A stretch of DNA of 45,780 nt from contig CAYMMQ010000001.1 of assembly GCA_964391585.1 (NCBI GenBank), positions 1 to 45,780 on the forward strand, in the 5' to 3' direction. A program made the translations under genes and the position numbers. This DNA comes from an uncultured Ectothiorhodospiraceae bacterium. GTDB lineage: Bacteria; Pseudomonadota; Gammaproteobacteria; GRL18. A model generated the notes under the pieces. That model made no database searches. It was not told the origin of the DNA and worked only from the letters and a program-made list of their open reading frames with translations. How positions within the stretch are numbered: the stretch's first letter is position 1; each line of letters starts with the position of its first letter. Of the stretch, positions 9,301 to 29,348 are shown piece after piece.

Positions 9301-12300
9301 AAGCAGACGAACTCGATCTCCCGTTTTATATAAGCGCGAATAACCCCGATTTTTATCCGTTTCGCTCATAAAAGGATTATTTATAAATCGCTCCCGAGTA
9401 AGGGTTTCTCTATGTAAATATCCACGAGTTATGCCTGCACCTGCAAGATATAATTCCCCTCCCATGCCCTGTGGTACGGGATTGAGTGCTGCATCCAGAA
9501 TATATACCCGAGTATTTTCCAGCGGCCGGCCAATTGACAAGTCTGATTCATTAACAGCGGCGATCGTTGAGGTAATCGCAGCTTCAGTTACACCATATTC
9601 TGCAAATAATTGATACTGAGATAAACGCTTAATCGTCTGCTGTGATGGCGTATCCCCACCATAAATAATAGTTTTAAGCTGAGTAAGTCGGTGAAACTCC
9701 AGACTATCCATTAGTGCTGCGGGAAGAATTAAATGGCTTGCCTGTGTCAACAATTCGTGATGAAAATCGATTGATTGACTTATCAATAAGCGCGCACCAC
9801 TTAATAAAGGCAGAAAAATACTGGCCACCGAGGCATCAAAAGCATAAGAAACCCCAAGATATATGGCACTATCAGGATTTAATTGATAACGCCTAACTTG
9901 TTGGCTCAGGGTATTCACCACATTTTGATGTTCTACCATGACTCCCTTAGGCTGTCCGGTTGTTCCTGAGGTATAAATCACATAGGCCAGACTAGCATTG
10001 TCGATCTCTTTTATCGGCAGACTCAGCTTATTTGAGCAATCCAAGCTATCTATAGCTAAGGTAAGTGGTGTGAGTTGATTTTCACGCAATACTTTATGTA
10101 AAAGTGATTGTTGCCCTATTCTAGTTAAAATTAATGCTGTCTTGGTATCCGACAAAATATAAGCGATTCTTGTCGCTGGAGAGTTTGGTTCGATAGGCAC
10201 ATAGGCGGCACCGGCTTTTAATACGGCTAAAATAGCAATAATCATCTCGGCACTACGATCCATAAATAGGGAAATTAAGGTATCGCATTTAAGTTCGCTT
10301 CCGGTTTTATGCAAATAGCTTTGACGTAAATAAGCGGCTAATTCAGTCGAACGCTGATCTAATTGTGCATAACTTAATTGTTCTCTTTCTGTAATGATGG
10401 CAATCTGATGTGGCGTATTGGCTGCCTGAAGACTAAATAAAGCATCTAAGCTAGTTTCAACCAGCGCGGTATCGGTTTGATTATAATCATAAAGTAAAGC
10501 CTGTTTTTCACTCTCATCAAGTAACTCCAACTGTTGATGAGGATATTGTAGCTTGTATGGAATTTGTTCTAAAATCCGTTGTAATTGATTCGTTAAACGC
10601 TGTATTCCTGTATGGCTAAATATTTCCCCAGCATAGCTGATACTGAGGTGTAATTTATCTGTTTGTTCAGAAACCAATAAGGATATAGGATAGTCGACTT
10701 TTTCTATCGACTCTCGAAAAACGCCCTTAATAGGCGCATCCTTTTCTGCCTCAACTTGAGGATAATTTTCAAAAACCAAAATAGAATGAAAAGCCCGTTG
10801 CCCTCCGGTTTGTAAGCTAGCCAATGGCAAAAAAGCATAATGATTTAATTCTGATATCCCTTGCTGAATCTGTTGTAATTGCTCCAGGGTGGTTGCATCC
10901 TGCCAGTTGATGATTAAAGGCAATGTATTAATATACAGACCGACACTTTGTTCAATACCATCAATAGGAATCGCTCTGCCTGACACCGTCGTACCCACAA
11001 TGGTTTGCTCATCTTGAGTATACAGTGCAATCAGTTTATGCCAGCCAAACTGAACCAGAGTATTCAAGCTCAAACCATTCTCACGCCCCATTTTTCTTAA
11101 AACCTGACAATTAAATGCCAGTTGAAAGGTCTCGGGCTGGTTAATATGACGAATATTATTTAAGTCAACTCTTTCATCAGTAAACAGATGGGTTAAATCA
11201 TTGGCATCTAAGCTCTCTCTAACATGTTCAGACCAATAGTCATCGACCAAATATTTATATTGAGCATAATACTGCTGGGCTTTCTGATAGGCTTTATCTT
11301 CAATAATCTCAAGCCTATTACCCTGTGAATGACTGAGGGTGGCATAAAACTCATGTACCTGCTGCAACAAGATAGGGACACTCCATCCGTCAGCAATACT
11401 ATGGTGCTGACTCAGCAATAATGTGTATAACTTTTCCTGTTTAATTAAATGTATTCTGAATAGGCCAGGCTGTTCCAGATTAAATGCTAGTTGCCGATCA
11501 TCCTGCTGAATCTTAGTTATTTTTTCCGCATTATTAGCAGTCTCATTACCAGTGGTCAGATCATGTAATATAAAATTAAGGGTAGCTTGCTTGTAAATCA
11601 ATTGCAGTGGTTGCTCTTCCCAATTAAAACCGGTGCGCAAAATAGGATAAGTGGCAATTGCCATTTCCCAAGCCTGACGGTAACAATTAATATCGATATC
11701 CTGTAGATAATCCATCAATATCTGTACCCGATAGGCATCATCACTTTTCTGACTCAATGCATGATAAATAAAACCCTGCTGTAAAGAATTAGCGGGATAG
11801 ATTGCCGCAACCTGATCATCAAAAATCCGTTCAAATAAATCTAGAGAAATATTCACATTAAAATCTGCAGGGGTAAAACTTATCAGTCCTTGTTCCAACT
11901 GCTTATTACAGTGTTGAACAATTTGCTCCAAGGCTGTCTTAAAACCATGAGTCAGTTTGTCCATTGTGCTATTATTTAATCGACCATCGAAGGTAAATTG
12001 CAATACACCGTCAATAATCATTGCATTGATGGTGAGCAAATTAATTTCTTGATTTTTTCGGCTCATAGAGAGTCCAGATGTAACATTGCTTAACTGCCAA
12101 ACATTAGCATCCGTTTCCTGCGAATTATTTAATATACCGAGATAATTGAAGGTAATTTTGGGCAGAGAAAATTCTATTTTTCTCGTTTCTCCCCCGCTAT
12201 CAAGATTTTCCTCAGCAGCATATGACAGGGCACCGAATCCCAGTCCTTTATCCGGAATTGCTCGTAGCATTTCTTTGGTTTGCTTAATAAGCAATGAGAG

Positions 12301-15300
12301 ATTGTCAGGATTAGCAGCTGAATAATTGTTTGAAGCTTGCCAGTTCGGACATTGCAATTTGATCGGAAACATACTAGTAAACCAACCGATAGTACGGGAT
12401 AAATCAATATCATTATCCAGATTCTCTCTACCATGCCCTTCCAAGGTGACTAAATTGACACTCTCATTACTACATTCAGATAAAGCGATGGCCAGTGCAC
12501 TAAGCAATAATTCATTAATTTCAGTATGATAAGCCTGATTGACGTATTGTTGTAATGAACGGGTCATTTGTGAAGAAAAAATTAAGTCACGACTAATAGC
12601 AACTTCGGATTCATCTCTTTTTAAGTTATCCCAAAATAGCGAGGAAACAGCAGAGGTTTCAGTCCAATAACGCCGTTGCGACTGGTTTTTTTTTGCATAA
12701 CGAGTCATCCGATCAACCCAATAGCGATAACTGGTCGTTTTAGTTAATAATTGTTCACCGTTATATAAGCTTTGTAAATCAGCACAAATAATTCGCCATG
12801 AAACCACATCAATCAGCAAATGATGGGCACAGAAAAAGATATAATTCGGCTCATTTTTCGTGCAATCACTATGATACACATACCCAATACGAAACAATGG
12901 CTGAGAGCCGTTATTGGCTATATCAAAACCTGTTTGCCAATCGGTCAGGACTGCTTCAATCTGATCTGCAGTCATGTCTTTGCTATCCAGAGTCTGTAAT
13001 TCAGGTGGTGGTATATACTGATGATATTGCTGATAAGTTTGTGTTTGATGAGCCTCATCTTTTTCACGGATAAAAGTAACTCTTAACATATCATGATGCA
13101 TCATTAATTGAGGAATGACGGCATTTAAACGCTTGCTATCCAGTGATGGTACCTGCAGCATAAAACTTTGATTCCAATGATGATAGTCAGGCAGCAACCC
13201 CAACTCTAATTGGGAAAAAAACCAGTCCTGAACAGGCAGCAAGGTAAAACTTCCGCTTAAAATCCCCTGCTCTGCCTGTATTTCAACTGGCGACTCAGTT
13301 TGTGAATATTGTAATATCTGTTTTAAGATCTTCAGATTAAAAATTTCTTTAACCGGCACCATTACGCCGATTTTTCTAAGTTGCGAGCTCAGCTGAATAC
13401 TTAAAATCGAATCACCACCAATACGGAAAAAATCATCATTCATTCCTACCGTAGCTAAATCCAGTAAATTCGCTACTATTTTACATAGTTGTGTTTCACT
13501 TTCATTGCTTGGCGCTAGATAATTGGTATTGCTTAGCTGGTTTGGTTTAGGCAAAGACTTACGATCCAGCTTACCATTTGAACTCTGTTTAAATTCTTCT
13601 AAAGCAATAAACATCGCTGGGATCATATACTCCGGCAAGCGTTTCGCTAACGCCAAACGTAAGGCATTTTCATCAATTTTGGCATTGGCCTGATAATAGG
13701 CATACAATTGTTTATGCTCGTGTAATTCATGTGCGATAACAGCTGATTGAATAATTTGCGGATATTGGTTGATAGCATCTTCGATTTCTCCAGTTTCAAT
13801 CCTTAAACCTCGAATTTTAACCTGAAAATCATTGCGTCCAATATATTCAATATTGCCATTACCTAATAACCTCACCAAGTCACCGGTTTTATACAATCGT
13901 TCATAAACCAACACTTTGTCGGTTGCAGTCATAAAAGGATTGGGAATAAATCGTTCCTTGGTTAGATCTGGACGATTTAAATACCCCTTTGAAACACCAA
14001 TACCAGCAATATACAATTCACCAACAACGCCTTGAGGCACGGGATTATGCCATTTATCTAAAATATACAAACGAGTATTATCAATAGGCAGTCCAATCGG
14101 AACGCTATCCCAATCATAACCTAATTTACTGCAGGGGAAATAAGTCGAATCAATCGCAGTTTCCGTTGGGCCATACAAGTTATGCAATTGAGTAAAATGG
14201 TTTTGGTAGTTTGAATTCAGATCATTAAATCGCTCAACACTCTGTTTGCTCAATGCTTCGCCAGAGCAAAAAACATAATGCAATTGCTCACTCAATTGAA
14301 TCTTTGAGCTGTGCAGAAATTCTATAAAAGAAACAAACATGGATGGCACAAAGTGAATAACAGTGATCTTCAGTTGCTGAATCACTTCATTAAGCAGCTG
14401 CGGATCTTTGTGAACTTCCGGTGCTGCAATCACAATACAAGCGCCATATAAATTGGCCCAGAATAATTCCCAACCAGAAACATCAAAGGTATATGGCGTT
14501 TTTTGTAAAACTCTATCAGCGGCTGTTAATGGATAGGTATTTTGCATCCAAGCAAGACGATTAACCAATGCCTGATGACTGACCATGACACCTTTAGGCC
14601 TTCCAGTCGTACCTGAGGTATAAATCACATTTGCCAGCTGATTTGGCTGTACATTCACGGTAACTCGGCTGGTCACTTCTTTTTTCCACTCCCCATTATC
14701 CACGGCAACACAATAGCTCATATTCGCTGACGCTTGCTTATCAATAATGTCAGATAAGTGATGACAATATTGCAACTGGGTTAATAGTAACGGTGATTTG
14801 CAATCATCCAGCATAAAGCCAATCCGAACATCCGGATATTGCGGGTCGATGGGCACATAGGCGCAACCCATCTTGAGAACAGCCAGAATACTAATAAGCA
14901 TTTCCAGTGACCGATCAAAGCATAAGGCAATCAAACTTTCACTCGGCAATTCTTGTTCTTTTCCCTGTTCTTGTGCTTGTTCCTGCCGCTGTTGTTGCAA
15001 ATAAAAACGTTGCAGATAATGGGCTAATTGATTGGAAGCTTCATCCAATTCCCGGTAAGTCATTTGTTGCTGATCAAAAATTACCGCTATCCGATCGGGG
15101 GTAGTTTTAGCCTGAGCACTAAACAGCTCATGTAAAGCCTCTGATGGATAAGGCCGGTCAGTTTGATTATAATCATATAACAAGGCCTGTCTCTCGGCTT
15201 CGCTTAGCAATGCTATCCGGCTATGTGGCTGTTCAAGCCCGGCAGGGATTTGCTCTAATATACGCTGCAGTTGCTCTGCCAAATACTCCGCCCTAGCCAC

Positions 15301-18300
15301 TTCCATTAACGCTGCATCATAACTCAGCCCAATATGTAACTGCTCTCCTTGCTCATGGACGATTAAGGCCAGCGGATAATCCACCTTTTCAATGGCCGCG
15401 CGTAATTCTCCACGCAATGGCGAATGCTCATCTGCCGTTGTCATCGGATAGTTTTCATACACTAATAAAGAATGAAACAATCGTCTACCTTGGCGTTGCA
15501 ACGAAACCAACGGTGTAAACGCATAATTGTTCAACTCCGCAATCTGCTGGTTAATGTGCTGTAACTGTGTCAGTACACTATTATTTTTGCTCCAATCAAT
15601 ACGCAAGGGCAGTGTATTGATATATAAACCAACACTTTGCTCAATACCATCAATCGGAATTGCCCGACCAGATACTGTTGTTCCTACAATGGTTTGTTCA
15701 TCCGTGCTGTAAACATTAATCAACTTATGCCAAGCAAATTGCACCATGCTATTCAAAGTCAATCCGTGCGCTTTAGCCACTTGTTTAAGGCTATTGCTCG
15801 ATAAGCTCAACTCTAAGCTTTGTGGTCGGCTCAGTGTGCGAATCGTATCTAAATCAACTGTTTTAGACAGCAAACTACTTAAATCATTGGCACTACTCAG
15901 ATATTGCTGCTGCTGTGCCCAGTAAGCTTGAGACTCTTCCGCATGGCGGGCATAATAGATTTGGGCCTCTAAATAGGCCTTGTCGGCAACGACCTTTATC
16001 GCTTCGCCGTTTTCTAAAGCAGCATAATACTCAGCAACTCGAGACAGAACAACCGGTTCACTCCAGCCATCGGCAATACTGTGATGCTCACTTTTGAGCA
16101 AGGTATAGTGCTGCTCATTGTGCTTTATCAAATGCAGACGCAATAGCGACGGTTTACTCAAGTCAAAAGCATGGCTACGGTCTTGTTGTTGAATACGGTC
16201 AATTTGCTCCTGAGGGTTGGAACAATCCGAACCATCATGCAACTGAAACTCTAGCGCTGTGGTTTTATGGATTAATTGCACCGGGGACTCTTCCCAGTTA
16301 AAACTGGTACGTAAGATGGGATAAGTTTCTAAGGTATATTCCCAAGCACGTTTGAAACGCTCAATATTAATTGCATGCGGATAATCAATTAAAATCTGCA
16401 CCCGATAAGCATCGTCTTGCGCATGACTTAAAGCATGATAGATAAAACCTTGTTGCAAGGAATTTGCCGCATAAATACCCTCAATATTATCGTTGTATAA
16501 GCGGTCAAACAACTCAAGGGATATTGCTGCATAAAAGTCACTGGGAGTCGCTTGCTGTTGTCCCTCATGGATACACTGCACACAATGGCTGACCAGGTTT
16601 TCTAAATGCGCTTTAAACGCTGCGCTAAAAAGGTTCAGTTGTTCTTGGTTCAGGCGGGTATTAACATCAAATTGTAATACCCCATCAATCACCAAGCCGT
16701 TAATATTAATCAGGTTGTTATCGTGATTAGAGGCTGCCATTGACTCACCACCATCCATATCAGCCAGTGGCCAGTCGTTCTCTTGTTGCTTTGAATCAGA
16801 ATTAAACACCCCTAAATAATTAAAACTAATCGGTGGCAAATGTTCTTGCTCTGCCGACAGCATTAAGGCGCCATAACCAATTCCCTTATCGGGGATGGTG
16901 CGTAGCATCTCTTTGGTTTGCCTGATGGCCAGCGAGAACTCTGTCTCATGCAGTAATCTCACCGGAAATAAGGTGGTAAACCAGCCTAAGGTCCGTGAGA
17001 CATCTAGCTTGGCATCGATGCTTTCCCGGCCATGCCCTTCTAAGGTAATCAAGTGCGCCACACTGCCACTTAATTCTGTCAAAGCTGTGGCTAATGCAGT
17101 CAGTAATAAATCATTTATCTCAGTAGAATAAGCCTGATTAGCCTGATACAAAAGCTGCTGTGTCAGCAAGCTTGAGAAGATAACTTTGCTATCACGCTGT
17201 TCATCCGTCGCAGCCGGCAAGCGACTATTTCCCTCCGAAGATAACACATCAGACCAGTACGCTTGTTGCGTTGGATGTTGTTGCGCATAGCGAGCAACGG
17301 CCGACACCCATTGACGATAACTCGCACTTTTGGGCAGCAAGGTTTCACCAGCATACAAGCTGCGCAAGTCTTCCGCAATAATCCGCCAGGAAACCGCATC
17401 AATAATTAGGTGATGGGCACTGAAAAAAACGTAGTTGCTCACTTGATGTTCAACGCGATAGTTGCTGACATACCCCACACTAAATAAGGGTTTGGCCACA
17501 TTAAACAGTTCATAATGACTTTGCCATTGGGTGAGTGCCTGACTCACCTCTTCAGAGCTCAGACCTTGTGCATCTAAGCATTGCAACTCAGGAGCGGTCA
17601 TTTGTGCCTGATAACGTTGCTGATAACAGACCTCGTTTGTTTCTTTTTTTATCTCTTGGCTAAAGCTAGTTCGCAACATATCATGATGCGCCATAAGCGT
17701 CACTAAGATGGCAGACAACCGGTGTGGTTCGAGCGCAGGGACTCTCAGCATAAAACATTGATTCCAATGCTGATAAGCGGGCAGCAAACCTGATTCCATT
17801 TGGGTAAAAAACCATTGCTGTACCGGCAATAGCGCAAAACTACCGCTTAAGAGACCTTGTTCACTATCCATCTGCGTTTGTGGCTGCGCCGATACCAACA
17901 TTCGTTTCACTGTTTTGTGCTGGAATATCGCCTTCACCGACAAATGAATATCCATTCTGCGTAATCGAGAACTCAGCTGAATACTTAAAATAGAATCTCC
18001 TCCAATTCGGAAAAAATCATCCTCAATACCCACTTGTTCAACGTTCAGCAACTCAGCAATGACATCACACACTTGACTTTCTTGTTCATTGCGCGGCGCA
18101 ACATAACCGCCACCGCTAAAGCTCGGTGACGGCAGTGCGCGGTAATCCAGCTTACCGTTAAGGGTCTGTTTAAATTCGCCTACAGCGATAAACTGGGCCG
18201 GTTGCATATAGTCCGGTAATTGCTGTTGCAGACTCTCTCGTAATGCTTCTTCATCAATAGCAAAAGCATCATCTTTCGTATAATACGCTAGCAGTTGTTT

Positions 18301-21258
18301 ATGACCTTGCCAATCATGGGCAACCACCACCGCCTGTACAATGCCAGGAAATTGTTTAATCAGGGCTTCTATTTCACCGGGTTCAATTCGAAATCCTCGA
18401 ATTTTAACCTGACTATCATTACGACCAATGTATTCAATATTGCCATTGTCCAACCAGCGAACCAAATCTCCGGTTTTATACATTCTGGTATGCCCATTTT
18501 GGGTGTCCATCTGGCTAGCAAAAGGATTAACCAGAAAACGCTCTCGGGTGAGTTGTTCACTGTTTAAATAACCCCGCGCCACACCAGCACCACCCACATA
18601 TAATTCACCGACTAGGCCGGGTGCCACCAGGTTCAAAGATTTATCAAGAATATAGGTTTTACGACCATTAATCGCTCGACCTATCGGTACGCTACCGTTG
18701 AATTCTTGGTGACAATTATAGGTGGTGGCAAAAGTAGTGGTTTCGGTCGGACCATAACCATTCAGTAAAAATTGCGGGCCCTGAGCATGATCTGACAAGG
18801 CCTTAATCAATCCAGGATCAAGCGCTTCACCCCCTGTGAGTAAATAACGAAGGGATTGAAACAAAGTATTATCGCTCAAATATAAACTATCAAACAGGGT
18901 CTTTGTCAGCCACAGTATGGTCACCTCAAACTCTTCAAGCTGTCGCTTGAATCGACCCAGGTTGGACAATAAGTCTTTGCTATTACTGGGTAAAACTAAT
19001 TTTGACCCATTCAGTAAAGCACCCCAGATTTCCAAGGTCGCCGCATCAAAAACCGGTGAGGCCAATTGCATAAAACAATCCGTCGGTTGTATCAACAAAT
19101 AGTCATTATTTTTAACCAATGACACCACCGCCGCATGCTCAACCATCACGCCCTTCGGATGTCCCGTAGTCCCCGAGGTATAAATCACATAAGCCAAATC
19201 ATCCATCCGTCCCGTATCAACGGGTGCTGTGCTCGGCGCTTGCACCCAGTCCGATGAGTGTTCTTCCACATTCAGTACGGCTCCGTTGAGCTGATGGCTA
19301 TTCATCACTTCTAGCAATGCAGTAACTCGGCTTTGACCCGTTAAGATTATTTCAGCCTCGGTATCGGCCAAAATATAGGCAATCCGCTCTGACGGATAGT
19401 CTGGATCTAGGGGGACATAAGCACCACCTGCCTTTAATATTGCCAGAATGGAAATTATCATTTCCACACTGCGATCAAAATACAACGCAATTAATTTGCC
19501 GCGTGGTATCACCGTGCCATATTGTTGTTCATAGATAGCACACAAATAATGAGCTAATTGATTTGAACGCATGTCTAATTCGGCATAACTCACTTGTTCA
19601 ATATCAAAAGATGATGTTTGTATTAAGGCTGTCGCCTGTGGGTAGCGCTTTGCTTGTTCACTAAACAATGCTTGGATCGATTGCAGTGGATAAGGTTGTT
19701 CCTCGGGGTTGTAATCATAAATTAACGCATTCCGCTCCACTTCACTGAGTAGACTATAACTGTTAATTAAGGCCTCAGAATTAGCGCTAATTTGTTGCAA
19801 CAAATAAACAAACCGATTAGCTAAAGTCTCTATGCTATGACGCTTATACAAAGAAGTCATATAAGCAATATCCAGATGCAATTGCTGCTGTGCATCCTCA
19901 CTCATAAATATTTCCAGATCAAACTTGGCTATCTTATATTGATCGTCTTCATACAGACGAAATGGCATATCATCTGCAAGTTGATTATCAAAATTCTGGA
20001 AGGTAAAAATAATATCAAATAAGGGGTGTCGCCCCGTATCACGTTGAATATCTAATAATTCAACTATTTTTCCAAAAGGCACATCCTGATTAGCCTGTGC
20101 TTCCATTACTCGCTTGGCAACTTGTGCTAAAAAGTCATCGAAGGATTGCTGTCCATACACCTGATTTCTAATAACCAAGGTATTGACAAAAAATCCGATC
20201 AGCTTTTCAATTCCAGGATAATGTCTATTCGCCGTTATAAAACCTAAACTAATATCTTGTTGATCGCTATATAGTGATATAAGAATATTGAAGGCACTCA
20301 GCAAATAGGTATATAAAGTCACACCACTCTTTTGAGCCAATTGCTTTATTTTAAGCGAAAGTTGCCGATCAATTACAAGCTGATAGCGTTCGCCAGAATA
20401 ATTAATATGCGAAGGCCTAGGAAAATCAGTTGGGAGAGCAAGTGATTGCATTCCATCCAGTCGTTGCTGCCAATAAGCCAATTGCTTATCTAACGCTCCC
20501 GATTGCAGATGGTATCTTTGCCAGAGGGAAAAATCTTTATATTGAATTATCAATTCAGGTAGCAGAGTAGTCTGATGCATTTTATCTGACCGATAAAAAT
20601 GGTTGATCTCTGCAAATAAAATATCAATACTCCAACCATCAAATGCAATGTGGTGAAAATTGATTAACAGATAGGTTTTTTCCGGTAGCGAGTATAAGGT
20701 GACAGCGATAGGTAAATCGCATGTTAAATCAAACTGATGATGAGCATCTTTGTTTAACTGAAGGGAAAAATGTTGCTCAGATGTTAATTCGAGATGAGCT
20801 ATTTTTAGCTCTGCTGCTATAACTTCTTGAAACGCATCATCATCTCCAGATTGTTTTATCAGCGTTCTTAAAACTTCATGACGTTGAACAACCTCATTTA
20901 TCGCTTTTTGCAAGCGATTGATTTCAGTACCGGCATTTATTTCCAGAACAATGGGAATATTATAGGCATTACTCCCCTGCTCATACTGCTCAATAAAATA
21001 CAGGCGCTCCTGAGCATAAGAAAGTACTGTTTGTTGCTCAGTAGATTTATAGATAATCGGCAGATGTGCATCACTAACAACTTGTGATGCCTTAAGTGTC
21101 TCTATAATTTCATTTTTATGCAGTTTAATTAAGGCAAACCACTCATTTTTATCGGCCACTTCTTGCAATAGCTTATATTTGAGTTTATTTCCTTCTTCCA
21201 CCCAGAGCAAAATCTTGTGTTGATTGATCAGATATAGCAGTTGTATGACATCGTCCAT
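3352..21258 (-). CDS. Non-ribosomal peptide synthetase NRPS-2, four modules: dock-C-A-T-E / C-A-T-E / C-A-T-E / C-A-T-TE
   Basis: 5,968 aa. Four A domains carry the core SGTTG(H/R/Q)PKG. T-domain Ser codons are at 17992-17994, 13408-13410, 8845-8847 and 4249-4251. Three E domains read HHL(I/L)(I/V)D(A/V)VSW. The first C domain has HHIAFDGWS, and three post-E C domains have HHSIADGWS (His codons at 16081-16086, 11401-11406, 6868-6873). The TE has GWSLGG with its Ser codon at 3838-3840. Confidence 0.97.
   Translation of the reverse strand: [5968 protein letters not shown]
3355..7281 (-). other. NRPS-2 module 4 (termination): C(DCL-like)-A(Gly-like)-T-TE. Approximate borders: C 6001-7281, A 4390-6000, T 4144-4350, TE 3355-4116
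   Basis: Motifs seen: [10 protein letters not shown] (C), [20 protein letters not shown] (A), [14 protein letters not shown] (T), and HPGSGG...GWSLGG with a C-terminal His (TE). The hand-derived code is DILQLGVIWK. Confidence 0.85.
7309..11811 (-). other. NRPS-2 module 3: C(DCL-like)-A(unassigned specificity)-T-E. Approximate borders: C 10528-11811, A 8986-10527, T 8743-8946, E 7309-8706
   Basis: Motifs seen: [10 protein letters not shown] (C), [20 protein letters not shown] (A), [14 protein letters not shown] (T), LPIQHWFF and [10 protein letters not shown] (E). The A domain has atypical FDASVAS and EYGVTE motifs. Confidence 0.8.
11839..16485 (-). other. NRPS-2 module 2: C(DCL-like)-A(Ser-like)-T-E. 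Approximate borders: C 15244-16485, A 13549-15231, T 13303-13509, E 11839-13281
   Basis: Motifs seen: [12 protein letters not shown] and [10 protein letters not shown] (C), [19 protein letters not shown] (A), [14 protein letters not shown] (T), LPVQDWFF and [10 protein letters not shown] (E). The hand-derived code is DVWHFSLIDK. The A domain carries a Q/E-rich insert ([16 protein letters not shown]). Confidence 0.85.
15233..19746. repeat. Copy A of a 4,514-bp direct repeat (A-T-E-C unit, inside NRPS-2)
   Basis: I checked the two breakpoint regions plus five 60-nt lines spread across the repeat against the sequence offset by +6,449, and found no mismatch. The encoded ~1,505 aa read the same in both proteins by eye. 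Six antisense or out-of-frame shadow ORFs recur with exactly the same offset and sequence. Confidence 0.95.
16519..21045 (-). other. NRPS-2 module 1: C(LCL-like)-A(Val-like)-T-E. Approximate borders: C 19759-21045, A 18130-19746, T 17890-18093, E 16519-17862
   Basis: Motifs seen: [10 protein letters not shown] and HHIAFDGWS (C), [20 protein letters not shown] and [10 protein letters not shown] (A), [14 protein letters not shown] (T), LPVQQWFF and [10 protein letters not shown] (E). The hand-derived specificity code is DALWLGGTFK. Borders are about +/-60 nt. Confidence 0.85.
21085..21258 (-). other. N-terminal docking domain of NRPS-2 (TubC-N / beta-hairpin docking type)
   Basis: aa 1-58 read [31 protein letters not shown]...[15 protein letters not shown]. 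This fits the LL..L...gI.LWvE.g.L.Y....L......i..HK.EI...L pattern of TubC N-terminal docking domains. It precedes the C domain, which starts near [10 protein letters not shown]. Confidence 0.6.
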
Positions 21259-21266
21259 TAAATTAC

Positions 21267-24200
21267 CTATAACTCGCCGCTTTCATAAATTTCTTCATTC
21301 ATTATTTTACTGTTTATTAAGTTCGCCAAATTGCGAATCGTACTATTTGTCATAAAGTCCGTATAACTTAAATCCACATTAAATTCATTATTAATCTGAT
21401 GCAAAATACTAATTGATACAATAGAATTAACCCCTAATCGAAAAAAGTCATCTAAAACACCAACCGTTTTACAAGCTAATATCTTAGTGAAAACCTGTAT
21501 CAGCCATTGCTCTGTTGCATTGTCCTCAAAGCTAGGTTGTTCCGGTAAAATAGCACCGTTGCAACTATCTGTATTTACCGTAGCTGTACTAGCCGTTACT
21601 GTATGAGCTCGTAACTTAACCTTTTTTGCGATAAGCTGGCGTTCAGCTTCGCTTAACACGTTTATCCGACTATGAGGCTGCTCAAGCCCGGCAGGGATTT
21701 GCTCTAATATACGCTGCAGTTGCTCTGCCAAATACTCCGCCCTAGCCACTTCCATTAACGCTGCATCATAACTCAGCCCAATATGTAACTGCTCTCCTTG
21801 CTCATGGACGATTAAGGCCAGCGGATAATCCACCTTTTCAATGGCCGCGCGTAATTCTCCACGCAATGGCGAATGCTCATCTGCCGTTGTCATCGGATAG
21901 TTTTCATACACTAATAAAGAATGAAACAATCGTCTACCTTGGCGTTGCAACGAAACCAACGGTGTAAACGCATAATTGTTCAACTCCGCAATCTGCTGGT
22001 TAATGTGCTGTAACTGTGTCAGTACACTATTATTTTTGCTCCAATCAATACGCAAGGGCAGTGTATTGATATATAAACCAACACTTTGCTCAATACCATC
22101 AATCGGAATTGCCCGACCAGATACTGTTGTTCCTACAATGGTTTGTTCATCCGTGCTGTAAACATTAATCAACTTATGCCAAGCAAATTGCACCATGCTA
22201 TTCAAAGTCAATCCGTGCGCTTTAGCCACTTGTTTAAGGCTATTGCTCGATAAGCTCAACTCTAAGCTTTGTGGTCGGCTCAGTGTGCGAATCGTATCTA
22301 AATCAACTGTTTTAGACAGCAAACTACTTAAATCATTGGCACTACTCAGATATTGCTGCTGCTGTGCCCAGTAAGCTTGAGACTCTTCCGCATGGCGGGC
22401 ATAATAGATTTGGGCCTCTAAATAGGCCTTGTCGGCAACGACCTTTATCGCTTCGCCGTTTTCTAAAGCAGCATAATACTCAGCAACTCGAGACAGAACA
22501 ACCGGTTCACTCCAGCCATCGGCAATACTGTGATGCTCACTTTTGAGCAAGGTATAGTGCTGCTCATTGTGCTTTATCAAATGCAGACGCAATAGCGACG
22601 GTTTACTCAAGTCAAAAGCATGGCTACGGTCTTGTTGTTGAATACGGTCAATTTGCTCCTGAGGGTTGGAACAATCCGAACCATCATGCAACTGAAACTC
22701 TAGCGCTGTGGTTTTATGGATTAATTGCACCGGGGACTCTTCCCAGTTAAAACTGGTACGTAAGATGGGATAAGTTTCTAAGGTATATTCCCAAGCACGT
22801 TTGAAACGCTCAATATTAATTGCATGCGGATAATCAATTAAAATCTGCACCCGATAAGCATCGTCTTGCGCATGACTTAAAGCATGATAGATAAAACCTT
22901 GTTGCAAGGAATTTGCCGCATAAATACCCTCAATATTATCGTTGTATAAGCGGTCAAACAACTCAAGGGATATTGCTGCATAAAAGTCACTGGGAGTCGC
23001 TTGCTGTTGTCCCTCATGGATACACTGCACACAATGGCTGACCAGGTTTTCTAAATGCGCTTTAAACGCTGCGCTAAAAAGGTTCAGTTGTTCTTGGTTC
23101 AGGCGGGTATTAACATCAAATTGTAATACCCCATCAATCACCAAGCCGTTAATATTAATCAGGTTGTTATCGTGATTAGAGGCTGCCATTGACTCACCAC
23201 CATCCATATCAGCCAGTGGCCAGTCGTTCTCTTGTTGCTTTGAATCAGAATTAAACACCCCTAAATAATTAAAACTAATCGGTGGCAAATGTTCTTGCTC
23301 TGCCGACAGCATTAAGGCGCCATAACCAATTCCCTTATCGGGGATGGTGCGTAGCATCTCTTTGGTTTGCCTGATGGCCAGCGAGAACTCTGTCTCATGC
23401 AGTAATCTCACCGGAAATAAGGTGGTAAACCAGCCTAAGGTCCGTGAGACATCTAGCTTGGCATCGATGCTTTCCCGGCCATGCCCTTCTAAGGTAATCA
23501 AGTGCGCCACACTGCCACTTAATTCTGTCAAAGCTGTGGCTAATGCAGTCAGTAATAAATCATTTATCTCAGTAGAATAAGCCTGATTAGCCTGATACAA
23601 AAGCTGCTGTGTCAGCAAGCTTGAGAAGATAACTTTGCTATCACGCTGTTCATCCGTCGCAGCCGGCAAGCGACTATTTCCCTCCGAAGATAACACATCA
23701 GACCAGTACGCTTGTTGCGTTGGATGTTGTTGCGCATAGCGAGCAACGGCCGACACCCATTGACGATAACTCGCACTTTTGGGCAGCAAGGTTTCACCAG
23801 CATACAAGCTGCGCAAGTCTTCCGCAATAATCCGCCAGGAAACCGCATCAATAATTAGGTGATGGGCACTGAAAAAAACGTAGTTGCTCACTTGATGTTC
23901 AACGCGATAGTTGCTGACATACCCCACACTAAATAAGGGTTTGGCCACATTAAACAGTTCATAATGACTTTGCCATTGGGTGAGTGCCTGACTCACCTCT
24001 TCAGAGCTCAGACCTTGTGCATCTAAGCATTGCAACTCAGGAGCGGTCATTTGTGCCTGATAACGTTGCTGATAACAGACCTCGTTTGTTTCTTTTTTTA
24101 TCTCTTGGCTAAAGCTAGTTCGCAACATATCATGATGCGCCATAAGCGTCACTAAGATGGCAGACAACCGGTGTGGTTCGAGCGCAGGGACTCTCAGCAT

Positions 24201-27200
24201 AAAACATTGATTCCAATGCTGATAAGCGGGCAGCAAACCTGATTCCATTTGGGTAAAAAACCATTGCTGTACCGGCAATAGCGCAAAACTACCGCTTAAG
24301 AGACCTTGTTCACTATCCATCTGCGTTTGTGGCTGCGCCGATACCAACATTCGTTTCACTGTTTTGTGCTGGAATATCGCCTTCACCGACAAATGAATAT
24401 CCATTCTGCGTAATCGAGAACTCAGCTGAATACTTAAAATAGAATCTCCTCCAATTCGGAAAAAATCATCCTCAATACCCACTTGTTCAACGTTCAGCAA
24501 CTCAGCAATGACATCACACACTTGACTTTCTTGTTCATTGCGCGGCGCAACATAACCGCCACCGCTAAAGCTCGGTGACGGCAGTGCGCGGTAATCCAGC
24601 TTACCGTTAAGGGTCTGTTTAAATTCGCCTACAGCGATAAACTGGGCCGGTTGCATATAGTCCGGTAATTGCTGTTGCAGACTCTCTCGTAATGCTTCTT
24701 CATCAATAGCAAAAGCATCATCTTTCGTATAATACGCTAGCAGTTGTTTATGACCTTGCCAATCATGGGCAACCACCACCGCCTGTACAATGCCAGGAAA
24801 TTGTTTAATCAGGGCTTCTATTTCACCGGGTTCAATTCGAAATCCTCGAATTTTAACCTGACTATCATTACGACCAATGTATTCAATATTGCCATTGTCC
24901 AACCAGCGAACCAAATCTCCGGTTTTATACATTCTGGTATGCCCATTTTGGGTGTCCATCTGGCTAGCAAAAGGATTAACCAGAAAACGCTCTCGGGTGA
25001 GTTGTTCACTGTTTAAATAACCCCGCGCCACACCAGCACCACCCACATATAATTCACCGACTAGGCCGGGTGCCACCAGGTTCAAAGATTTATCAAGAAT
25101 ATAGGTTTTACGACCATTAATCGCTCGACCTATCGGTACGCTACCGTTGAATTCTTGGTGACAATTATAGGTGGTGGCAAAAGTAGTGGTTTCGGTCGGA
25201 CCATAACCATTCAGTAAAAATTGCGGGCCCTGAGCATGATCTGACAAGGCCTTAATCAATCCAGGATCAAGCGCTTCACCCCCTGTGAGTAAATAACGAA
25301 GGGATTGAAACAAAGTATTATCGCTCAAATATAAACTATCAAACAGGGTCTTTGTCAGCCACAGTATGGTCACCTCAAACTCTTCAAGCTGTCGCTTGAA
25401 TCGACCCAGGTTGGACAATAAGTCTTTGCTATTACTGGGTAAAACTAATTTTGACCCATTCAGTAAAGCACCCCAGATTTCCAAGGTCGCCGCATCAAAA
25501 ACCGGTGAGGCCAATTGCATAAAACAATCCGTCGGTTGTATCAACAAATAGTCATTATTTTTAACCAATGACACCACCGCCGCATGCTCAACCATCACGC
25601 CCTTCGGATGTCCCGTAGTCCCCGAGGTATAAATCACATAAGCCAAATCATCCATCCGTCCCGTATCAACGGGTGCTGTGCTCGGCGCTTGCACCCAGTC
25701 CGATGAGTGTTCTTCCACATTCAGTACGGCTCCGTTGAGCTGATGGCTATTCATCACTTCTAGCAATGCAGTAACTCGGCTTTGACCCGTTAAGATTATT
25801 TCAGCCTCGGTATCGGCCAAAATATAGGCAATCCGCTCTGACGGATAGTCTGGATCTAGGGGGACATAAGCACCACCTGCCTTTAATATTGCCAGAATGG
25901 AAATTATCATTTCCACACTGCGATCAAAATACAACGCAATTAATTTGCCGCGTGGTATCACCGTGCCATATTGTTGTTCATAGATAGCACACAAATAATG
26001 AGCTAATTGATTTGAACGCATGTCTAATTCGGCATAACTCACTTGTTCAATATCAAAAGATGATGTTTGTATTAAGGCTGTCGCCTGTGGGTAGCGCTTT
26101 GCTTGTTCACTAAACAATGCTTGGATCGATTGCAGTGGATAAGGTTGTTCCTCGGGGTTGTAATCATAAATTAACGCATTCCGCTCCACTTCACTCAATA
26201 GACTGTAGCATTCAAGTGGGACGTCTATATTTTCATGAAGATTAGAGAATATAGTTCGTAAGATTTTACTTAAAGTCAGTATTTGGGCCTTGCTATAGGA
26301 TTTATCTCGATATTCAATACGAAGTTCTAGTTGTTCTTGCAAGTCAAACTCAAAATAAAGTTCGTATTTAACATGTGCAGGTAAAGCCTCATTCTGAGTA
26401 ACATACCATTGACTATCCCGCGCCATTTTTGGCTCTAGGGTCATAAATATATTAGGCAATTTTTCTAGCGGATCGCTAGTCTGTCGAATTTGCTGTAATA
26501 ACTCGTCATAAGGAAGTGTGCTTAGCAAGCTTTGCTGTACACCCTCAAAAACAGTCTGTAATAAGTGGACAAAGTTTTCCTTCTCATCTATTTGGATACA
26601 ACTAATTTCATTAGCCAAAAAATTACCAAACACCGGCTCGCTCAGTGCAGATCGTAAAGATTTTACACCTCCAACACTTAAGCAGCTTTCATCACTTATT
26701 TTATATAATAACAAATAGGTAACACTGAGCAATAATGAGTAAAAACTAACGCCCTGTTGTTTAGCTAAATTACATAAATGCTGAGTATCATGTAGCGAAA
26801 GAATTTCAACGATAAAGTGTCCTACACTATCATTTTGATGACTTACTATTTTATCTATTGTAAAATCATTACTTCCAGCAAATAAATTCAGTGGATGAAT
26901 ATTCTCCAGTAAAAACTGAAAATCTTGACGCGTTGGTGGAAGCTGAATTGTAGCAGTAGCTTTGGGCAGTTGCGCCTGACTATCCTTTAATAAAATTTTA
27001 AGTTGGGGCACAAACAAGTTATACATGGCATCACCATCAGCAATAAGATGGTGAAAAATTGCTGCTAATTTATACCCTGATTCACCAATTTGAAATAAAG
27101 CGAAACGATATAGAGGTCCTTGTTGTAGATCAAATGGCTGGTTGAGCAAAAGACTCAACTCTCGTTTATATGCTTGTTGATCAGCTATTTGATGAAATGT

Positions 27201-29348
27201 TACTAGCTGAGCAGAATTATCTAAAACCGGTCCAGCAATAAACCGCTTATACGATTCATCACAGCAACAACGCAAGATAAGATGATGATTGATCACACGG
27301 ATGAGTGCTTGATTGAGTTGCTCGATATTCACACGAACAGTTTTAAAATCAATACTTATATGTTCGTTATATAACACCTCATGACTGATAAGCTGATGAC
27401 TGATAATCAATTGCTGCATAGGGTTAAATGCCAGACTATGAATATCCATAAATTCTTCAGTATTCTGACCAGCTGATTGCTCAGCTTCGATAAAAGTGGC
27501 TAATTGTCTGATGGTTTGACAAGATACAATTTCCCGAACGCTAATCAAATAACCCGAGTGGCGCAGTTGCGCAGCAAGTTGAATACTGAGAATCGAGTCA
27601 CCACCAATAGCAAAAAAATTATCTTCGATTCCAACGTGTGGTAAATCAAGAAGCTTTCCGACCAAGTGGCACAAGAGCTCTTGTAAGCTATTTTCTGCTG
27701 CTTGATATTGATCCGACTGCCCCTGCAATAATTTAAAATTAACTTCGGGTAAGGCTGTTCTGTCCAATTTGCCGTTTTGGGTCACTGCAAATGATTTCAC
27801 TTGTTTTAGCAAACTAGGGAGCATATATTCAGGTAATTGTTTGCTTAACCAATGATTTAATTGCTCAGTATCAATGGAGTGATCCGCACTAAAATAGCCA
27901 ATTAAATATTGTTGTCCTACATGTTCAGCAACTTTCACAACACACTGCTTTACACTAAAAAACTGGCTAATAGTATTTTCAACCTCTCCCAGTTCAATGC
28001 GCAAACCTCGAAGTTTTATTTGCGAGTCGTTGCGGCCCAAATATTCAATATTTCCATCCCCAAGTTGGCGCACCATATCACCCGTTTTATATAAACGCGT
28101 ATAACCAGCTAGTTCATCATCAGCAGTCAAATATGGATTTGCAATAAAACGTTCCTGTGTCAATTCTGGCTTATTAAGATAAGCTCGTGCTAAACCAGCA
28201 CCACCGATATATAATTCACCTGTATTTCCAACTGCTACTCTATGCTGTTTATCATCTAGAATATATACTAGTGTATTAGCAATGGGCCGCCCTATTGGCA
28301 CACTATTATGTACCTCATTAAGTTGGCTACAGGCAAAGAATGTAGAGTCAATAGTTGTTTCAGTCGGACCGTACAAATTATGTAACTGAGCTTGGCTCTG
28401 TGCATCTAAGGAGTTGTTAAATTGCTCCACCGTTTTTAATGCTAAAGACTCTCCTGAGCAAAAAACATAACGTAACTGGACAGCAAATTGTTTCTGCGTT
28501 GCAGCAAGATAGTCCTGAAATGATTGCAGCATTGAAGGTACAAAATGCAATACGGTAACATCATATTCGCAGATCAACTGTTCTAATTCTTCTGGATATT
28601 TATGACTCTCTGGTGGTGCAATAACGATACTTGCGCCATACAAGTTAGCCCAAAGTAACTCCCATACAGAGACGTCAAAAGTGTAAGGCGTTTTTTGCAA
28701 GATTCGATCATCAGAAGATATAGGATAAGTTTCCTGCATCCAAGAAATACGATTAAACAATGCAGCATGCTCTATCATCACGCCTTTAGGTTTACCCGTA
28801 GTCCCAGATGTGTATATAACATAAGCCAGATTTTCTTTGTCTAGCATATTGCACAAAGGAGTTAGACTTTCATGAATCCAATCATTTTCATCCATTACCA
28901 CACATTGCGCTTCAAGCCTAATCTGCTGAAGAATCATTGTCAGTTTGTCTTGGTATTGGCTTTGACAACAAATAAGAGGAGAATTGATATCTTGTAAAAT
29001 ATAACTGATGCGATCATCTGGATAATGGGGATCAATAGGAACATAAGCAGCGCCAGCCTTAAAAATGGCTAATATAGCGATAATCATTTCCACACTGCGA
29101 TCAAGGATTAACGCAATCAAAGTCTCTGTTGCTAAGACCTTGCCATATTTAAGCTGATATCGATTTTTCAAATAATGAGCTAGTTGGTTTGAACGTTCAT
29201 CCAAATCCTGGTAAGTTAGGTGTTGGTCTTGAAAAATCAGTGCAATAGCTTCTGGTGTAACTTTAAGTTGTTCTGAAAACAACTGAAGGATGGTAGATGC
29301 AGAGTGGTTTTTATCAGTGTGATTAATTAAATCTTCTTGGGTAATCAT
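21267..29348 (-). CDS. Non-ribosomal peptide synthetase NRPS-1 (initiation): A-T / C-A-T-E / C-T (no A domain in the last module)
   Basis: 2,693 aa. It starts directly with an A domain (AYVIYTSGTTGKPKGVMIEH). T Ser codons are at 27594-27596, 24441-24443 and 21423-21425. It has a divergent C domain (FHHLIADGDAM), then A-T-E-C identical to NRPS-2 module 1, then a linker and a final carrier domain (DDFFRLGVNSIVSI). The TAG stop lies 8 nt before the NRPS-2 ATG. Confidence 0.97.
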   Translation of the reverse strand: MITQEDLINHTDKNHSASTILQLFSEQLKVTPEAIALIFQDQHLTYQDLDERSNQLAHYLKNRYQLKYGKVLATETLIALILDRSVEMIIAILAIFKAGAAYVPIDPHYPDDRISYILQDINSPLICCQSQYQDKLTMILQQIRLEAQCVVMDENDWIHESLTPLCNMLDKENLAYVIYTSGTTGKPKGVMIEHAALFNRISWMQETYPISSDDRILQKTPYTFDVSVWELLWANLYGASIVIAPPESHKYPEELEQLICEYDVTVLHFVPSMLQSFQDYLAATQKQFAVQLRYVFCSGESLALKTVEQFNNSLDAQSQAQLHNLYGPTETTIDSTFFACSQLNEVHNSVPIGRPIANTLVYILDDKQHRVAVGNTGELYIGGAGLARAYLNKPELTQERFIANPYLTADDELAGYTRLYKTGDMVRQLGDGNIEYLGRNDSQIKLRGLRIELGEVENTISQFFSVKQCVVKVAEHVGQQYLIGYFSADHSIDTEQLNHWLSKQLPEYMLPSLLKQVKSFAVTQNGKLDRTALPEVNFKLLQGQSDQYQAAENSLQELLCHLVGKLLDLPHVGIEDNFFAIGGDSILSIQLAAQLRHSGYLISVREIVSCQTIRQLATFIEAEQSAGQNTEEFMDIHSLAFNPMQQLIISHQLISHEVLYNEHISIDFKTVRVNIEQLNQALIRVINHHLILRCCCDESYKRFIAGPVLDNSAQLVTFHQIADQQAYKRELSLLLNQPFDLQQGPLYRFALFQIGESGYKLAAIFHHLIADGDAMYNLFVPQLKILLKDSQAQLPKATATIQLPPTRQDFQFLLENIHPLNLFAGSNDFTIDKIVSHQNDSVGHFIVEILSLHDTQHLCNLAKQQGVSFYSLLLSVTYLLLYKISDESCLSVGGVKSLRSALSEPVFGNFLANEISCIQIDEKENFVHLLQTVFEGVQQSLLSTLPYDELLQQIRQTSDPLEKLPNIFMTLEPKMARDSQWYVTQNEALPAHVKYELYFEFDLQEQLELRIEYRDKSYSKAQILTLSKILRTIFSNLHENIDVPLECYSLLSEVERNALIYDYNPEEQPYPLQSIQALFSEQAKRYPQATALIQTSSFDIEQVSYAELDMRSNQLAHYLCAIYEQQYGTVIPRGKLIALYFDRSVEMIISILAILKAGGAYVPLDPDYPSERIAYILADTEAEIILTGQSRVTALLEVMNSHQLNGAVLNVEEHSSDWVQAPSTAPVDTGRMDDLAYVIYTSGTTGHPKGVMVEHAAVVSLVKNNDYLLIQPTDCFMQLASPVFDAATLEIWGALLNGSKLVLPSNSKDLLSNLGRFKRQLEEFEVTILWLTKTLFDSLYLSDNTLFQSLRYLLTGGEALDPGLIKALSDHAQGPQFLLNGYGPTETTTFATTYNCHQEFNGSVPIGRAINGRKTYILDKSLNLVAPGLVGELYVGGAGVARGYLNSEQLTRERFLVNPFASQMDTQNGHTRMYKTGDLVRWLDNGNIEYIGRNDSQVKIRGFRIEPGEIEALIKQFPGIVQAVVVAHDWQGHKQLLAYYTKDDAFAIDEEALRESLQQQLPDYMQPAQFIAVGEFKQTLNGKLDYRALPSPSFSGGGYVAPRNEQESQVCDVIAELLNVEQVGIEDDFFRIGGDSILSIQLSSRLRRMDIHLSVKAIFQHKTVKRMLVSAQPQTQMDSEQGLLSGSFALLPVQQWFFTQMESGLLPAYQHWNQCFMLRVPALEPHRLSAILVTLMAHHDMLRTSFSQEIKKETNEVCYQQRYQAQMTAPELQCLDAQGLSSEEVSQALTQWQSHYELFNVAKPLFSVGYVSNYRVEHQVSNYVFFSAHHLIIDAVSWRIIAEDLRSLYAGETLLPKSASYRQWVSAVARYAQQHPTQQAYWSDVLSSEGNSRLPAATDEQRDSKVIFSSLLTQQLLYQANQAYSTEINDLLLTALATALTELSGSVAHLITLEGHGRESIDAKLDVSRTLGWFTTLFPVRLLHETEFSLAIRQTKEMLRTIPDKGIGYGALMLSAEQEHLPPISFNYLGVFNSDSKQQENDWPLADMDGGESMAASNHDNNLININGLVIDGVLQFDVNTRLNQEQLNLFSAAFKAHLENLVSHCVQCIHEGQQQATPSDFYAAISLELFDRLYNDNIEGIYAANSLQQGFIYHALSHAQDDAYRVQILIDYPHAINIERFKRAWEYTLETYPILRTSFNWEESPVQLIHKTTALEFQLHDGSDCSNPQEQIDRIQQQDRSHAFDLSKPSLLRLHLIKHNEQHYTLLKSEHHSIADGWSEPVVLSRVAEYYAALENGEAIKVVADKAYLEAQIYYARHAEESQAYWAQQQQYLSSANDLSSLLSKTVDLDTIRTLSRPQSLELSLSSNSLKQVAKAHGLTLNSMVQFAWHKLINVYSTDEQTIVGTTVSGRAIPIDGIEQSVGLYINTLPLRIDWSKNNSVLTQLQHINQQIAELNNYAFTPLVSLQRQGRRLFHSLLVYENYPMTTADEHSPLRGELRAAIEKVDYPLALIVHEQGEQLHIGLSYDAALMEVARAEYLAEQLQRILEQIPAGLEQPHSRINVLSEAERQLIAKKVKLRAHTVTASTATVNTDSCNGAILPEQPSFEDNATEQWLIQVFTKILACKTVGVLDDFFRLGVNSIVSISILHQINNEFNVDLSYTDFMTNSTIRNLANLINSKIMNEEIYESGEL
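21324..22934 (-). other. NRPS-1 terminal A-less module: C(DCL-like)-linker-T. Approximate borders: C 21693-22934, linker 21528-21692, T 21324-21527
   Basis: The C domain is identical to the NRPS-2 C at 15244-16485. After ...LEQPHSRINVLSEAERQ, only about 50 aa of S/T-rich linker (LIAKKVKLRAHTVTASTATVNTDSCNG...) precede a carrier domain (FFRLGVNSIVSISIL). No adenylation motifs lie in between. Confidence 0.8.
21682..26195. repeat. Copy B of the 4,514-bp direct repeat (A-T-E-C unit, inside NRPS-1)
   Basis: Same evidence as copy A. Identity stops at 21681/15232 (c vs t) and at 26196/19747 (c vs g). Short stretches of partial similarity continue beyond both ends, in the coding for LSEAERQ and YSLLSE. 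Confidence 0.95.
22968..27437 (-). other. NRPS-1 module 2: C(divergent)-A(Val-like)-T-E. Approximate borders: C 26196-27437, A 24579-26195, T 24339-24542, E 22968-24311
   Basis: The C domain has FNPMQQLII...FHHLIADGDAMYNL. The A-T-E part is nucleotide-identical to 16519-19746 (offset 6,449). Confidence 0.85.
27495..29348 (-). other. NRPS-1 loading module A(Ser-like)-T. Approximate borders: A 27747-29348, T 27495-27701
   Basis: No N-terminal C or starter domain. Motifs seen: FDVSVWE, YVFCSGES, HNLYGPTETTIDST and NGKLDRTALP. The hand-derived code is DVWHFSLIDK. The T motif is FFAIGGDSILSIQL. Confidence 0.8.

Follow-up and report, generated by a model that had tools for sequence, protein, structure and literature searches.

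Nonribosomal peptide synthetase (NRPS) modules without an adenylation (A) domain are known, usually as finished designs. HMWP2 of the yersiniabactin line, with the order ArCP-Cy1-A-PCP1-Cy2-PCP2, uses its own A domain to load two carriers in cis, PCP1 and PCP2, and a third, PCP3, in trans (PMC9547227). In CmnI and VioI (capreomycin and viomycin; PMC12400406) and in the A-less modules of WS9326A (PMC7539972) the carrier receives its residue from an A domain that lies elsewhere; CmnI, for example, is loaded by CmnA-A1 (PMC12400406). In the plipastatin line an engineered deletion of A6 led to module skipping, while deletion of T6 yielded nothing, so T6 is required (PMC5984369). Here we describe the last module of NRPS-1, one of two NRPS genes in a 45,780-nucleotide (nt) stretch from an uncultured Ectothiorhodospiraceae bacterium (GenBank assembly GCA_964391585.1, contig CAYMMQ010000001.1, forward-strand positions 1 to 45,780; hereafter the window). 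In this module a condensation (C) domain leads to a carrier (thiolation, T) domain with no A domain in between. A related uncultured bacterium carries the module with its A domain, and the two organisms in all likelihood present the states before and after the loss.

NRPS-1 resembles HMWP2 in that a C-type domain runs straight onto a carrier at the C-terminus of the subunit, before the hand-over, with no A domain in the module. However, HMWP2 is an evolved and conserved design with the same residue (Cys) at each position, whereas the A domain in the ortholog of NRPS-1 has its own, different code, and loading in cis would be a makeshift that changes the residue. CmnI, VioI and the WS9326A modules are A-less in the same way, but their partner A domain is identified and a specific interaction has been demonstrated, while for NRPS-1 no partner is encoded in the window. 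NRPS-1 thus has the direct C-T connection of this evolved class, but not its conservation among orthologs. The closest functional analogue is the plipastatin deletions, in which A was likewise removed from a C-A-T module and T was kept. Those are laboratory constructs inside a subunit, whereas the change in NRPS-1 is natural, lies at a subunit interface and leaves an orphan T with a docking tail. As in the TubC, Kj12 (RXP) and PaxA pairs, the acceptor protein of the window has a structured N-terminal docking domain and the donor a short C-terminal peptide after its T domain. The docking pair of the window is predicted from sequence, and its docking domain, when searched alone, matches Pfam TubC_N with an E-value of 2.6e-4, under the curated cut-off. 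The best description of the locus is a natural A-domain deletion in an otherwise canonical docking-linked NRPS, not new machinery.

The two genes are arranged in tandem on the minus strand with 8 nt between them. Their open reading frames (ORFs), about 26 kb in all, are unbroken and every core motif is present. According to Pfam and motif mapping, NRPS-1 has the order A1(Ser)-T1-C2-A2(Val)-T2-E2-C3-spacer-T3-docking tail, where E stands for epimerisation, with two AMP-binding, three Condensation-family and three PP-binding stretches. NRPS-2 has the order docking domain-C4-A4(Val)-T4-E4-C5-A5(Ser)-T5-E5-C6-A6-T6-E6-C7-A7(Gly)-T7-TE (TE, thioesterase). The first-pass annotation, made from the letters of the DNA, had proposed that NRPS-1 ends in a C-T unit, and this end is real: C3 is followed by a spacer, a carrier domain and a short acidic tail, and AMP-binding is absent. 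When the tail was scanned alone at E<=10, Pfam gave zero AMP-binding matches between C3 and T3. The serine codon of the terminal carrier had been placed at 21423-21425, which is right (Ser2642, TCT at 21425-21423), and NRPS-2 does run on through SEAERQALLYDYNQTD into an A domain. Only the linker length needs correction, from about 50 amino acids (aa) to a spacer of 38 aa ahead of carrier helix 1.

The window sequence is also present in metagenomes from hydrothermal vents and microbial mats. In the hydrothermal-vent metagenome X1, a Logan contig of 828 nt equals 20848-21675 with 0 differences and spans the NRPS-2 start, the tail, T3, the spacer and the NRPS-1-specific edge of C3. From the microbial-mat metagenome X2, a 159-nt contig matches 21248-21406 exactly, i.e. 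the C-terminus of T3, the docking tail, the intergenic spacer and the start of NRPS-2. Since the independent X1 contig crosses the C-T junction, the junction is not a misassembly.

The 127-aa tail was searched against 1.84 billion representative proteins. Among thousands of generic carrier matches there was one close relative, P0017, a fragment with the same T domain and tail and a full A domain ahead of them. The orthologous cluster is found on its source contig, L010, and on L011 (157 kb), from a related uncultured organism. The gene order on L011 is syntenic, with the beta-lactamase-family gene, NRPS-1, an 8-nt spacer and NRPS-2, the start of which is 80.6% identical to that of the window. 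Its NRPS-1 has 3233 aa against 2693 aa in the window, a difference of 540 aa. The two proteins are 75.5% identical over window aa 1-2573; about 540 extra residues follow in L011, and then the T domain and tail. The L011 order is A-T-C-A-T-E-C-A-T, with three AMP-binding stretches by Pfam against two in the window. L090 is related more distantly. It was the best non-L011 match among 5.8 billion proteins (48% identity over docking domain and C), and the gene next to this match is collinear with A4-T4-E4 (54% identity). The upstream gene of L090 ends in A-T-tail, with the unusual G-[LV]-N-S-I carrier motif, the E-x-G-E-[IL] end and the 8-nt spacer all as in the window.

The A-less architecture is therefore not conserved among orthologs, as both L011 and L090 carry an A domain before the homologous T-tail. 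With C-A-T in the sister L011 and A-T-tail in the outgroup L090, the A-less state of the window appears to be derived. Very probably, C3-T3 is an ordinary C3-A3-T3-docking tail module that has undergone a lineage-specific loss of its A domain. As to origin, this agrees with one of the readings of the first-pass annotation, that the module is a scar, for which a normal C-A-T in orthologous clusters had been named as the sign.

Other searches brought less. The 129-aa tail had no match in a word-index protein search, and exact-protein look-ups for NRPS-1 and the neighbouring gene returned none. A scan of GTDB genomes with the N-terminus of NRPS-2 gave matches of only 33-46% identity. In one further locus (L008) the upstream gene is an acyltransferase, which makes the locus uninformative. 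The NRPS-2-like gene of L090 is split inside an A domain into ORFs of 689 aa and 627 aa (L090:3187-3248), probably by a frameshift in a low-coverage assembly or as a genuine pseudogene.

The edges of the deletion can be placed to the codon. Homology of the C domain ends at ..LSEAERQ (Q2571), and the left breakpoint, right behind it, is where the C-A linker starts. In the comparison with L011, homology is lost past the CAG codon of Gln2571 and is regained at helix 1 of T3, from the codon of D2609, just before NATEQW (window 21524). In between lies the spacer, LIAKKVKLRAHTVTASTATVNTDSCNGAILPEQPSFED, which runs LIAKK...PSFED and sits where the ortholog carries about 540 aa more (the A3 domain and the A-T linker). 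The spacer has no similarity to the ortholog at the nt level, where 294 of 300 shuffled sequences score as high, or at the aa level (shuffling, p=0.22-0.83), and its 114 nt have no match in L011, L090, L010 or the window. When the whole tail was compared with the window by tblastx and blastn (including blastn-short), other T domains were the sole matches. AlphaFold2 (AF2) predicts the spacer to be disordered, with a predicted local distance difference test score (pLDDT) <50 over most of it. The spacer is open and in frame; we estimate the chance of this at about 2.5% for random filler of its composition and 1 in 3 for a simple deletion.

Two candidate identities of the spacer were rejected. 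A cryptic A domain is contradicted by empty results from Pfam at E<=10, from tblastx and blastn-short on the window, and from the searches of L011, L090 and L010. A relic of the A10 motif and A-T linker was considered, as BLASTP paired IAKKVKLRA with VSGKINYRA of the ortholog at a similar distance to the Ser, and it was dropped because the alignment is no better than that of shuffled sequence at the nt level or at the aa level (p=0.57).

T3 has the sequence and the predicted fold of a carrier domain. It matches PF00550 with 52.5 bits against a cut-off of 20.8 (E 5.9e-14), and its Ser2642 lies in FFRLGVNSIVSI, a G-V-N-S variant of the GG(H/D)S motif that is common to the ortholog. In the AF2 model T3 forms a four-helix bundle (tail residues 40-118, block-mean pLDDT 81-93) with Ser2642 (LGVNSI) as the first residue of helix 2. 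Foldseek matches this model to peptidyl carrier proteins (PCPs) at 0.9-1.4 A root mean square deviation, the best match being PaxA T1 with its C-terminal docking domain (T1-CDD). The core of T3 is 84% identical in aa to that of L011, with a ratio of non-synonymous to synonymous rates (dN/dS) of 0.107.

The tail behind T3 comprises 15 aa, is acidic and ends ..NEEIYESGEL; the E-x-G-E-[LI] end is conserved in L011 and L090. The docking domain of NRPS-2 begins 8 nt past the stop codon of NRPS-1. A profile of the window, L011 and L008 sequences of this domain matches AerJ (8aqq, 1.3e-7), TubC (2jug, 5.1e-4) and Kj12B-NDD (6ewt, 2.6e-3) in the PDB. In the Kj12 system the N-terminal docking domain is bound by only the five C-terminal residues of the donor subunit (PMC6195595). 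By analogy, T3 and the tail appear to be the point of hand-over from NRPS-1 to C4 of NRPS-2, and their retention could be explained by this candidate link. C4 has the motifs LSYAQERLYF and HHIAFDGWS, as the first-pass annotation had read them, is 83% identical in aa to its L011 ortholog (dN/dS 0.074), and appears from its place in the line to take the chain from T3. Because no E domain precedes C4, an L-configured donor is expected there. Over T3 and the docking domain (window 21079-21521), the synonymous divergence (dS) from L011 is lower (0.66-0.79) than in neighbouring domains (1.15-1.5), which may be small-sample noise, nucleotide-level constraint where the two genes meet, or later exchange.

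On the other side of the spacer, C3 has its HHSIADGWS at aa 2272 and lies directly downstream of E2 (T2-E2-C3). Given this position and the intact HHxxxDG, C3 is predicted to be a condensation domain that accepts a D-configured donor, in line with the DCL type assigned in the first-pass annotation. Its sequence equals that of C5 of NRPS-2 apart from the last ~16 codons. The features of both proteins are collected in Table 1.

Table 1. Positions of the main features in the window, and specificity codes of the A domains.
Feature	Position in the window	Strand	Residues or code	Basis
NRPS-1 gene	21267..29348	-	2693 aa	ORF, translation, Pfam, specificity codes
NRPS-2 gene	3352..21258	-	5968 aa	ORF, Pfam, motifs, specificity codes
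C3 condensation domain of NRPS-1	21630..22931	-	aa 2140-2573	Pfam best stretch, motif, repeat mapping
38-aa spacer	21522..21635	-	aa 2572-2609	Alignment to ortholog
T3 carrier domain	21315..21509	-	aa 2614-2678	PP-binding, AF2, Foldseek
C-terminal docking peptide, ..SKIMNEEIYESGEL	21270..21314	-	aa 2679-2693	Alignments, analogy to Kj12B CDD
N-terminal TubC-type docking domain of NRPS-2	21079..21258	-	aa 1-60	Pfam, profile search of PDB
C4, first condensation domain of NRPS-2	19723..21039	-	aa 74-512	Pfam, motif
Repeat copy 1 (A2-T2-E2-C3)	21643..26204	-		blastn; ends downstream at the deletion breakpoint
Repeat copy 2 (A4-T4-E4-C5), in NRPS-2	15194..19755	-		blastn
Sfp-type 4'-phosphopantetheinyl transferase	41984..42661	-		Pfam 4PPT_N 2.1e-21, ACPS 5.4e-9
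A1			DVWHFSLIDK	
A2 = A4			DALWLGGTFK	
A5			DVWHFSLIDK	
A6, gap at one pocket position (unusual)	8700-10300		DAA-IGEITK	
A7			DILQIGVIWK	
A3 of L011, no E domain in module			DALLSGAVCK	

C3 is the end of a long repeat, in which A2-T2-E2-C3 of NRPS-1 is paired with A4-T4-E4-C5 of NRPS-2. The copies share 4562 nt at 99.76% identity (blastn); all 11 mismatches fall close to the ends, no more than 39 nt from one and 9 nt from the other, and the core (21682-26195) has none. L011 has the repeat as well, over 4995 nt at 99.64% identity, with 18 mismatches at the edges only. Identity of the segments is 99.6-100% inside one genome and about 75% from species to species, from which we infer that the repeat predates the split of the two species and that gene conversion keeps it uniform (concerted evolution). 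Medema et al. 2014 (PMC4256081) described paralogous modules that resemble one another within a cluster more closely than orthologous modules do across clusters. The identical core and frayed edges, in the window and in L011, resemble such concerted evolution of NRPS and polyketide synthase (PKS) modules. Unlike earlier cases, the two-species comparison is unusually clean, the tract borders are defined to the nucleotide, and one tract has been shortened by a domain deletion.

In L011 the conversion tract extends 433 nt further, into A3 and A5 (L011:9760-10159 and 17844-18243). The A3 domain of L011 is accordingly a chimera, with an N-terminal part of ~144 aa that is A5-type and a remainder that is <=43% identical to any A domain of either cluster. 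Because the tract of L011 runs these 433 nt beyond the point where that of the window ends, at the breakpoint, the deletion sets the present repeat border of the window. The first-pass annotation had it the other way round, with the C-T module created at or adjacent to the repeat border; the repeat is present in both species and predates their split, and the deletion truncates it. An aberrant conversion event is a possible trigger of the deletion. In the 48 nt beside the breakpoint the two window copies differ at 12 sites, as much as each differs from L011 (9 and 16 sites), a hint that the border has some age. In X1 a C edge of NRPS-1 type leads into the start of A5 (window 15114-15232, 21646-21675), and the repeat of that strain is identical up to the breakpoint. 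From this NRPS-1-type edge on an NRPS-2 copy, conversion appears to be ongoing, with variable tract ends, and to be separable from the deletion.

The course of events was very probably as follows. An old A-T-E-C paralogous pair is held identical by conversion, and in the window lineage a deletion cut into the tract, the border of which it now marks. The A3 domain and the A-T linker were replaced in frame by the 38-aa disordered spacer, with the left breakpoint right after ..LSEAERQ, and T3 and the terminal docking peptide were kept. Module 3 would then no longer be able to charge its own carrier. T3 could be aminoacylated by a neighbouring A domain, after which C3 would condense, as with the single A domain of HMWP2; the candidate loaders are two Val domains of identical sequence, A2 within NRPS-1 and A4 in the protein docked to it, or else the Ser domain A1. 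Alternatively, the chain would pass without elongation, so that the module is skipped and the peptide is one residue shorter.

On balance, it is somewhat more likely than not that the assembly line still runs through C3-T3. The in-frame spacer, the intact ORFs and motifs, the low dN/dS of T3 and C4, the edge divergence at the breakpoint and the absence of a rate acceleration favour continued function. In a relative-rate test the window lineage shows 26 against 20 changes over docking domain-C4 (p=0.46) and 3 against 2 in T3. Of the two routes, charging of T3 by a neighbouring A domain, for which the known A-less systems provide the analogy, is put forward tentatively, and skipping, modelled on the plipastatin A6 deletion, seems somewhat unlikely. 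That the deletion is old and has been kept by selection is doubtful; in that case the orphan C-T-docking unit would be a natural A-less relay, charged with Val (by A2 in cis or by A4 of the docked protein) or passing the chain on uncharged.

A stalled or truncating line is a serious possibility, although the less probable outcome. The loss of the A domain would then have inactivated module 3, with the chain stalled on T2 or hydrolysed, and the cluster would be an early pseudogene with too little time so far to decay. Several observations count in this direction and against a working line. The engineered deletion of A7 in plipastatin truncated the line (PMC5984369). T3 is only 20-26% identical to the other carriers of the cluster, so that its non-cognate loading may be poor, and skipping would bring a D-Val donor to a C domain not preceded by an E domain. 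A stand-alone A domain or an MbtH-like gene was not found within the 45.8-kb window. The strains that bear the allele differ by a fraction of a percent over the aligned contigs, and the deletion may thus be recent. The differences in low-depth contigs, 5 synonymous and 8 non-synonymous, do not look strongly constrained; these are thin data, with too few variants at too low a depth for a population dN/dS. The argument from frayed edges does not hold if conversion had stopped short at the C-A linker even before the deletion took place. As for the origin, the polarity of the loss rests on one close ortholog and one distant relative, L090 being a putative ortholog.

One of these differences is a nonsense variant. 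In X2 a G>T change at window 26797 turns codon 851 of NRPS-1, in C2, from TCG (Ser) into TAG (S851*); it is seen in the single X2 contig that covers the site, at a mean depth of ~3.9. If real, the X2 population has a broken NRPS-1.

Set against an inactive cluster are the ~26 kb of intact reading frame with all core motifs, the open in-frame spacer with its low chance expectation, C4 and T3 without acceleration on the window branch, and a breakpoint edge that is as diverged as the species split; the nonsense variant comes from one contig at a depth of ~4. Between the window and L011 dS is saturated (1.1-1.7), which gives no date for the deletion. Contigs of X1-X4 aligned on A3 of L011 gave generic motif matches alone for an intact A3 allele, at a depth of ~3x and with an 80% identity floor that is above the ~75% interspecies identity.

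A different origin, in which one recombination step made the scar, as the first-pass annotation had proposed, is improbable. Here the event that made the repeat, or a single aberrant conversion between its copies, would also have removed the A domain. The breakpoint does coincide, to the codon, with the end of the homology between the copies, and both repeat borders are in C-A linkers, which are known recombination points. However, the repeat is older than the species split, and L011 has it with the same left border and an intact A domain. The 12 differing sites in the 48 nt by the breakpoint do not fit a fresh copy-paste, the NRPS-1-type edge on the X1 NRPS-2 copy separates conversion from the deletion, and neither microhomology nor a donor of the spacer was found in the window, L011, L090 or L010.

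Very unlikely is a purpose-built A-less module, with C-T as the ancestral state served by a dedicated trans A domain encoded elsewhere, and with the A domain of L011 as a secondary gain. There are well-documented C-T modules that lack an A domain and are loaded in trans (PMC7539972; PMC12400406), and the chimeric A3 of L011, the first 433 nt of which belong to the A5-type repeat, could be taken as a sign of such a gain. But both the close ortholog L011 and the more distant L090 have A-T-tail at the junction, and inserting an A domain exactly at the C-T joint would take more steps than a single deletion. No trans A domain or MbtH-like gene was found in the 45.8 kb of the window, and the spacer is predicted disordered and shows no conservation. 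Finally, a mis-join that dropped the A domain in assembly is hardly credible, for although a perfect 4.5-kb repeat whose copies lie 6449 nt from each other is a well-known source of misassembly, the spacer and T3 consist of unique sequence that directly adjoins the NRPS-1-specific edge of C3, and the X1 and X2 contigs match without a difference over 20848-21675 and 21248-21406, respectively.

The consequences depend on whether the line is active. If it is, natural assembly lines tolerate the loss of a single domain by non-cognate loading or skipping, which bears on NRPS engineering and on the prediction of products from sequence. If it is inactive, the locus is a dated first step of cluster decay. 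If the deletion is old and selected, a lineage in the wild has altered its peptide, or made it shorter, through the loss of one domain at the C-A linker, the fusion point that engineers use, and we see a captured evolutionary intermediate of module loss. In any case the locus is a very clean example of conversion that keeps two module blocks of 4.5-5 kb identical in each of two species.

The specificity codes in Table 1 were extracted by alignment. Read as Stachelhaus codes, they specify Ser (A1, A5), Val (A2, A4) and Gly (A7). The peptide of the L011 ortholog, as read from its domains, should be Ser-D-Val-X3-D-Val-D-Ser-D-X6-Gly. The first-pass annotation had expected an L-configured donor for the next C domain and an extra L-residue between the two D-Val positions, and A3 of L011, in a module with no E domain, fills that slot. 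In L011 one C-domain sequence (C3 = C5) serves two acceptors, the A3 substrate and Ser; C3 is therefore tolerant and not narrowly selective.

Among the neighbouring genes, the cluster flanks at 31440-34778 (+) and 39466-41960 (-) encode a ComA-like phosphosulfolactate synthase, two Na/sulfate-symporter-family transporters and ABC-type substrate-binding proteins, and an FGE-sulfatase-family gene is at 43354-44526. This suggests a sulfur or sulfonate theme with no evident tie to the NRPS. The Sfp-type 4'-phosphopantetheinyl transferase would be needed for priming T3 and the other carrier domains, phosphopantetheinylation of T3 being predicted. Directly downstream of NRPS-2, at window 941-3176 (-), an ABC transporter of 548 aa with fused membrane and ATPase domains and a DUF697 protein are likely an export module for the peptide. 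Upstream, NRPS-1 is adjoined by the beta-lactamase-family gene (PF00144; 29607-31025, -), which is syntenic at L011:296-1798 with 77.8% nt identity. Beside a synthetase for a peptide rich in D-amino acids, its product could be either a D-stereospecific peptidase, for self-resistance or processing, or a PBP-like hydrolase.

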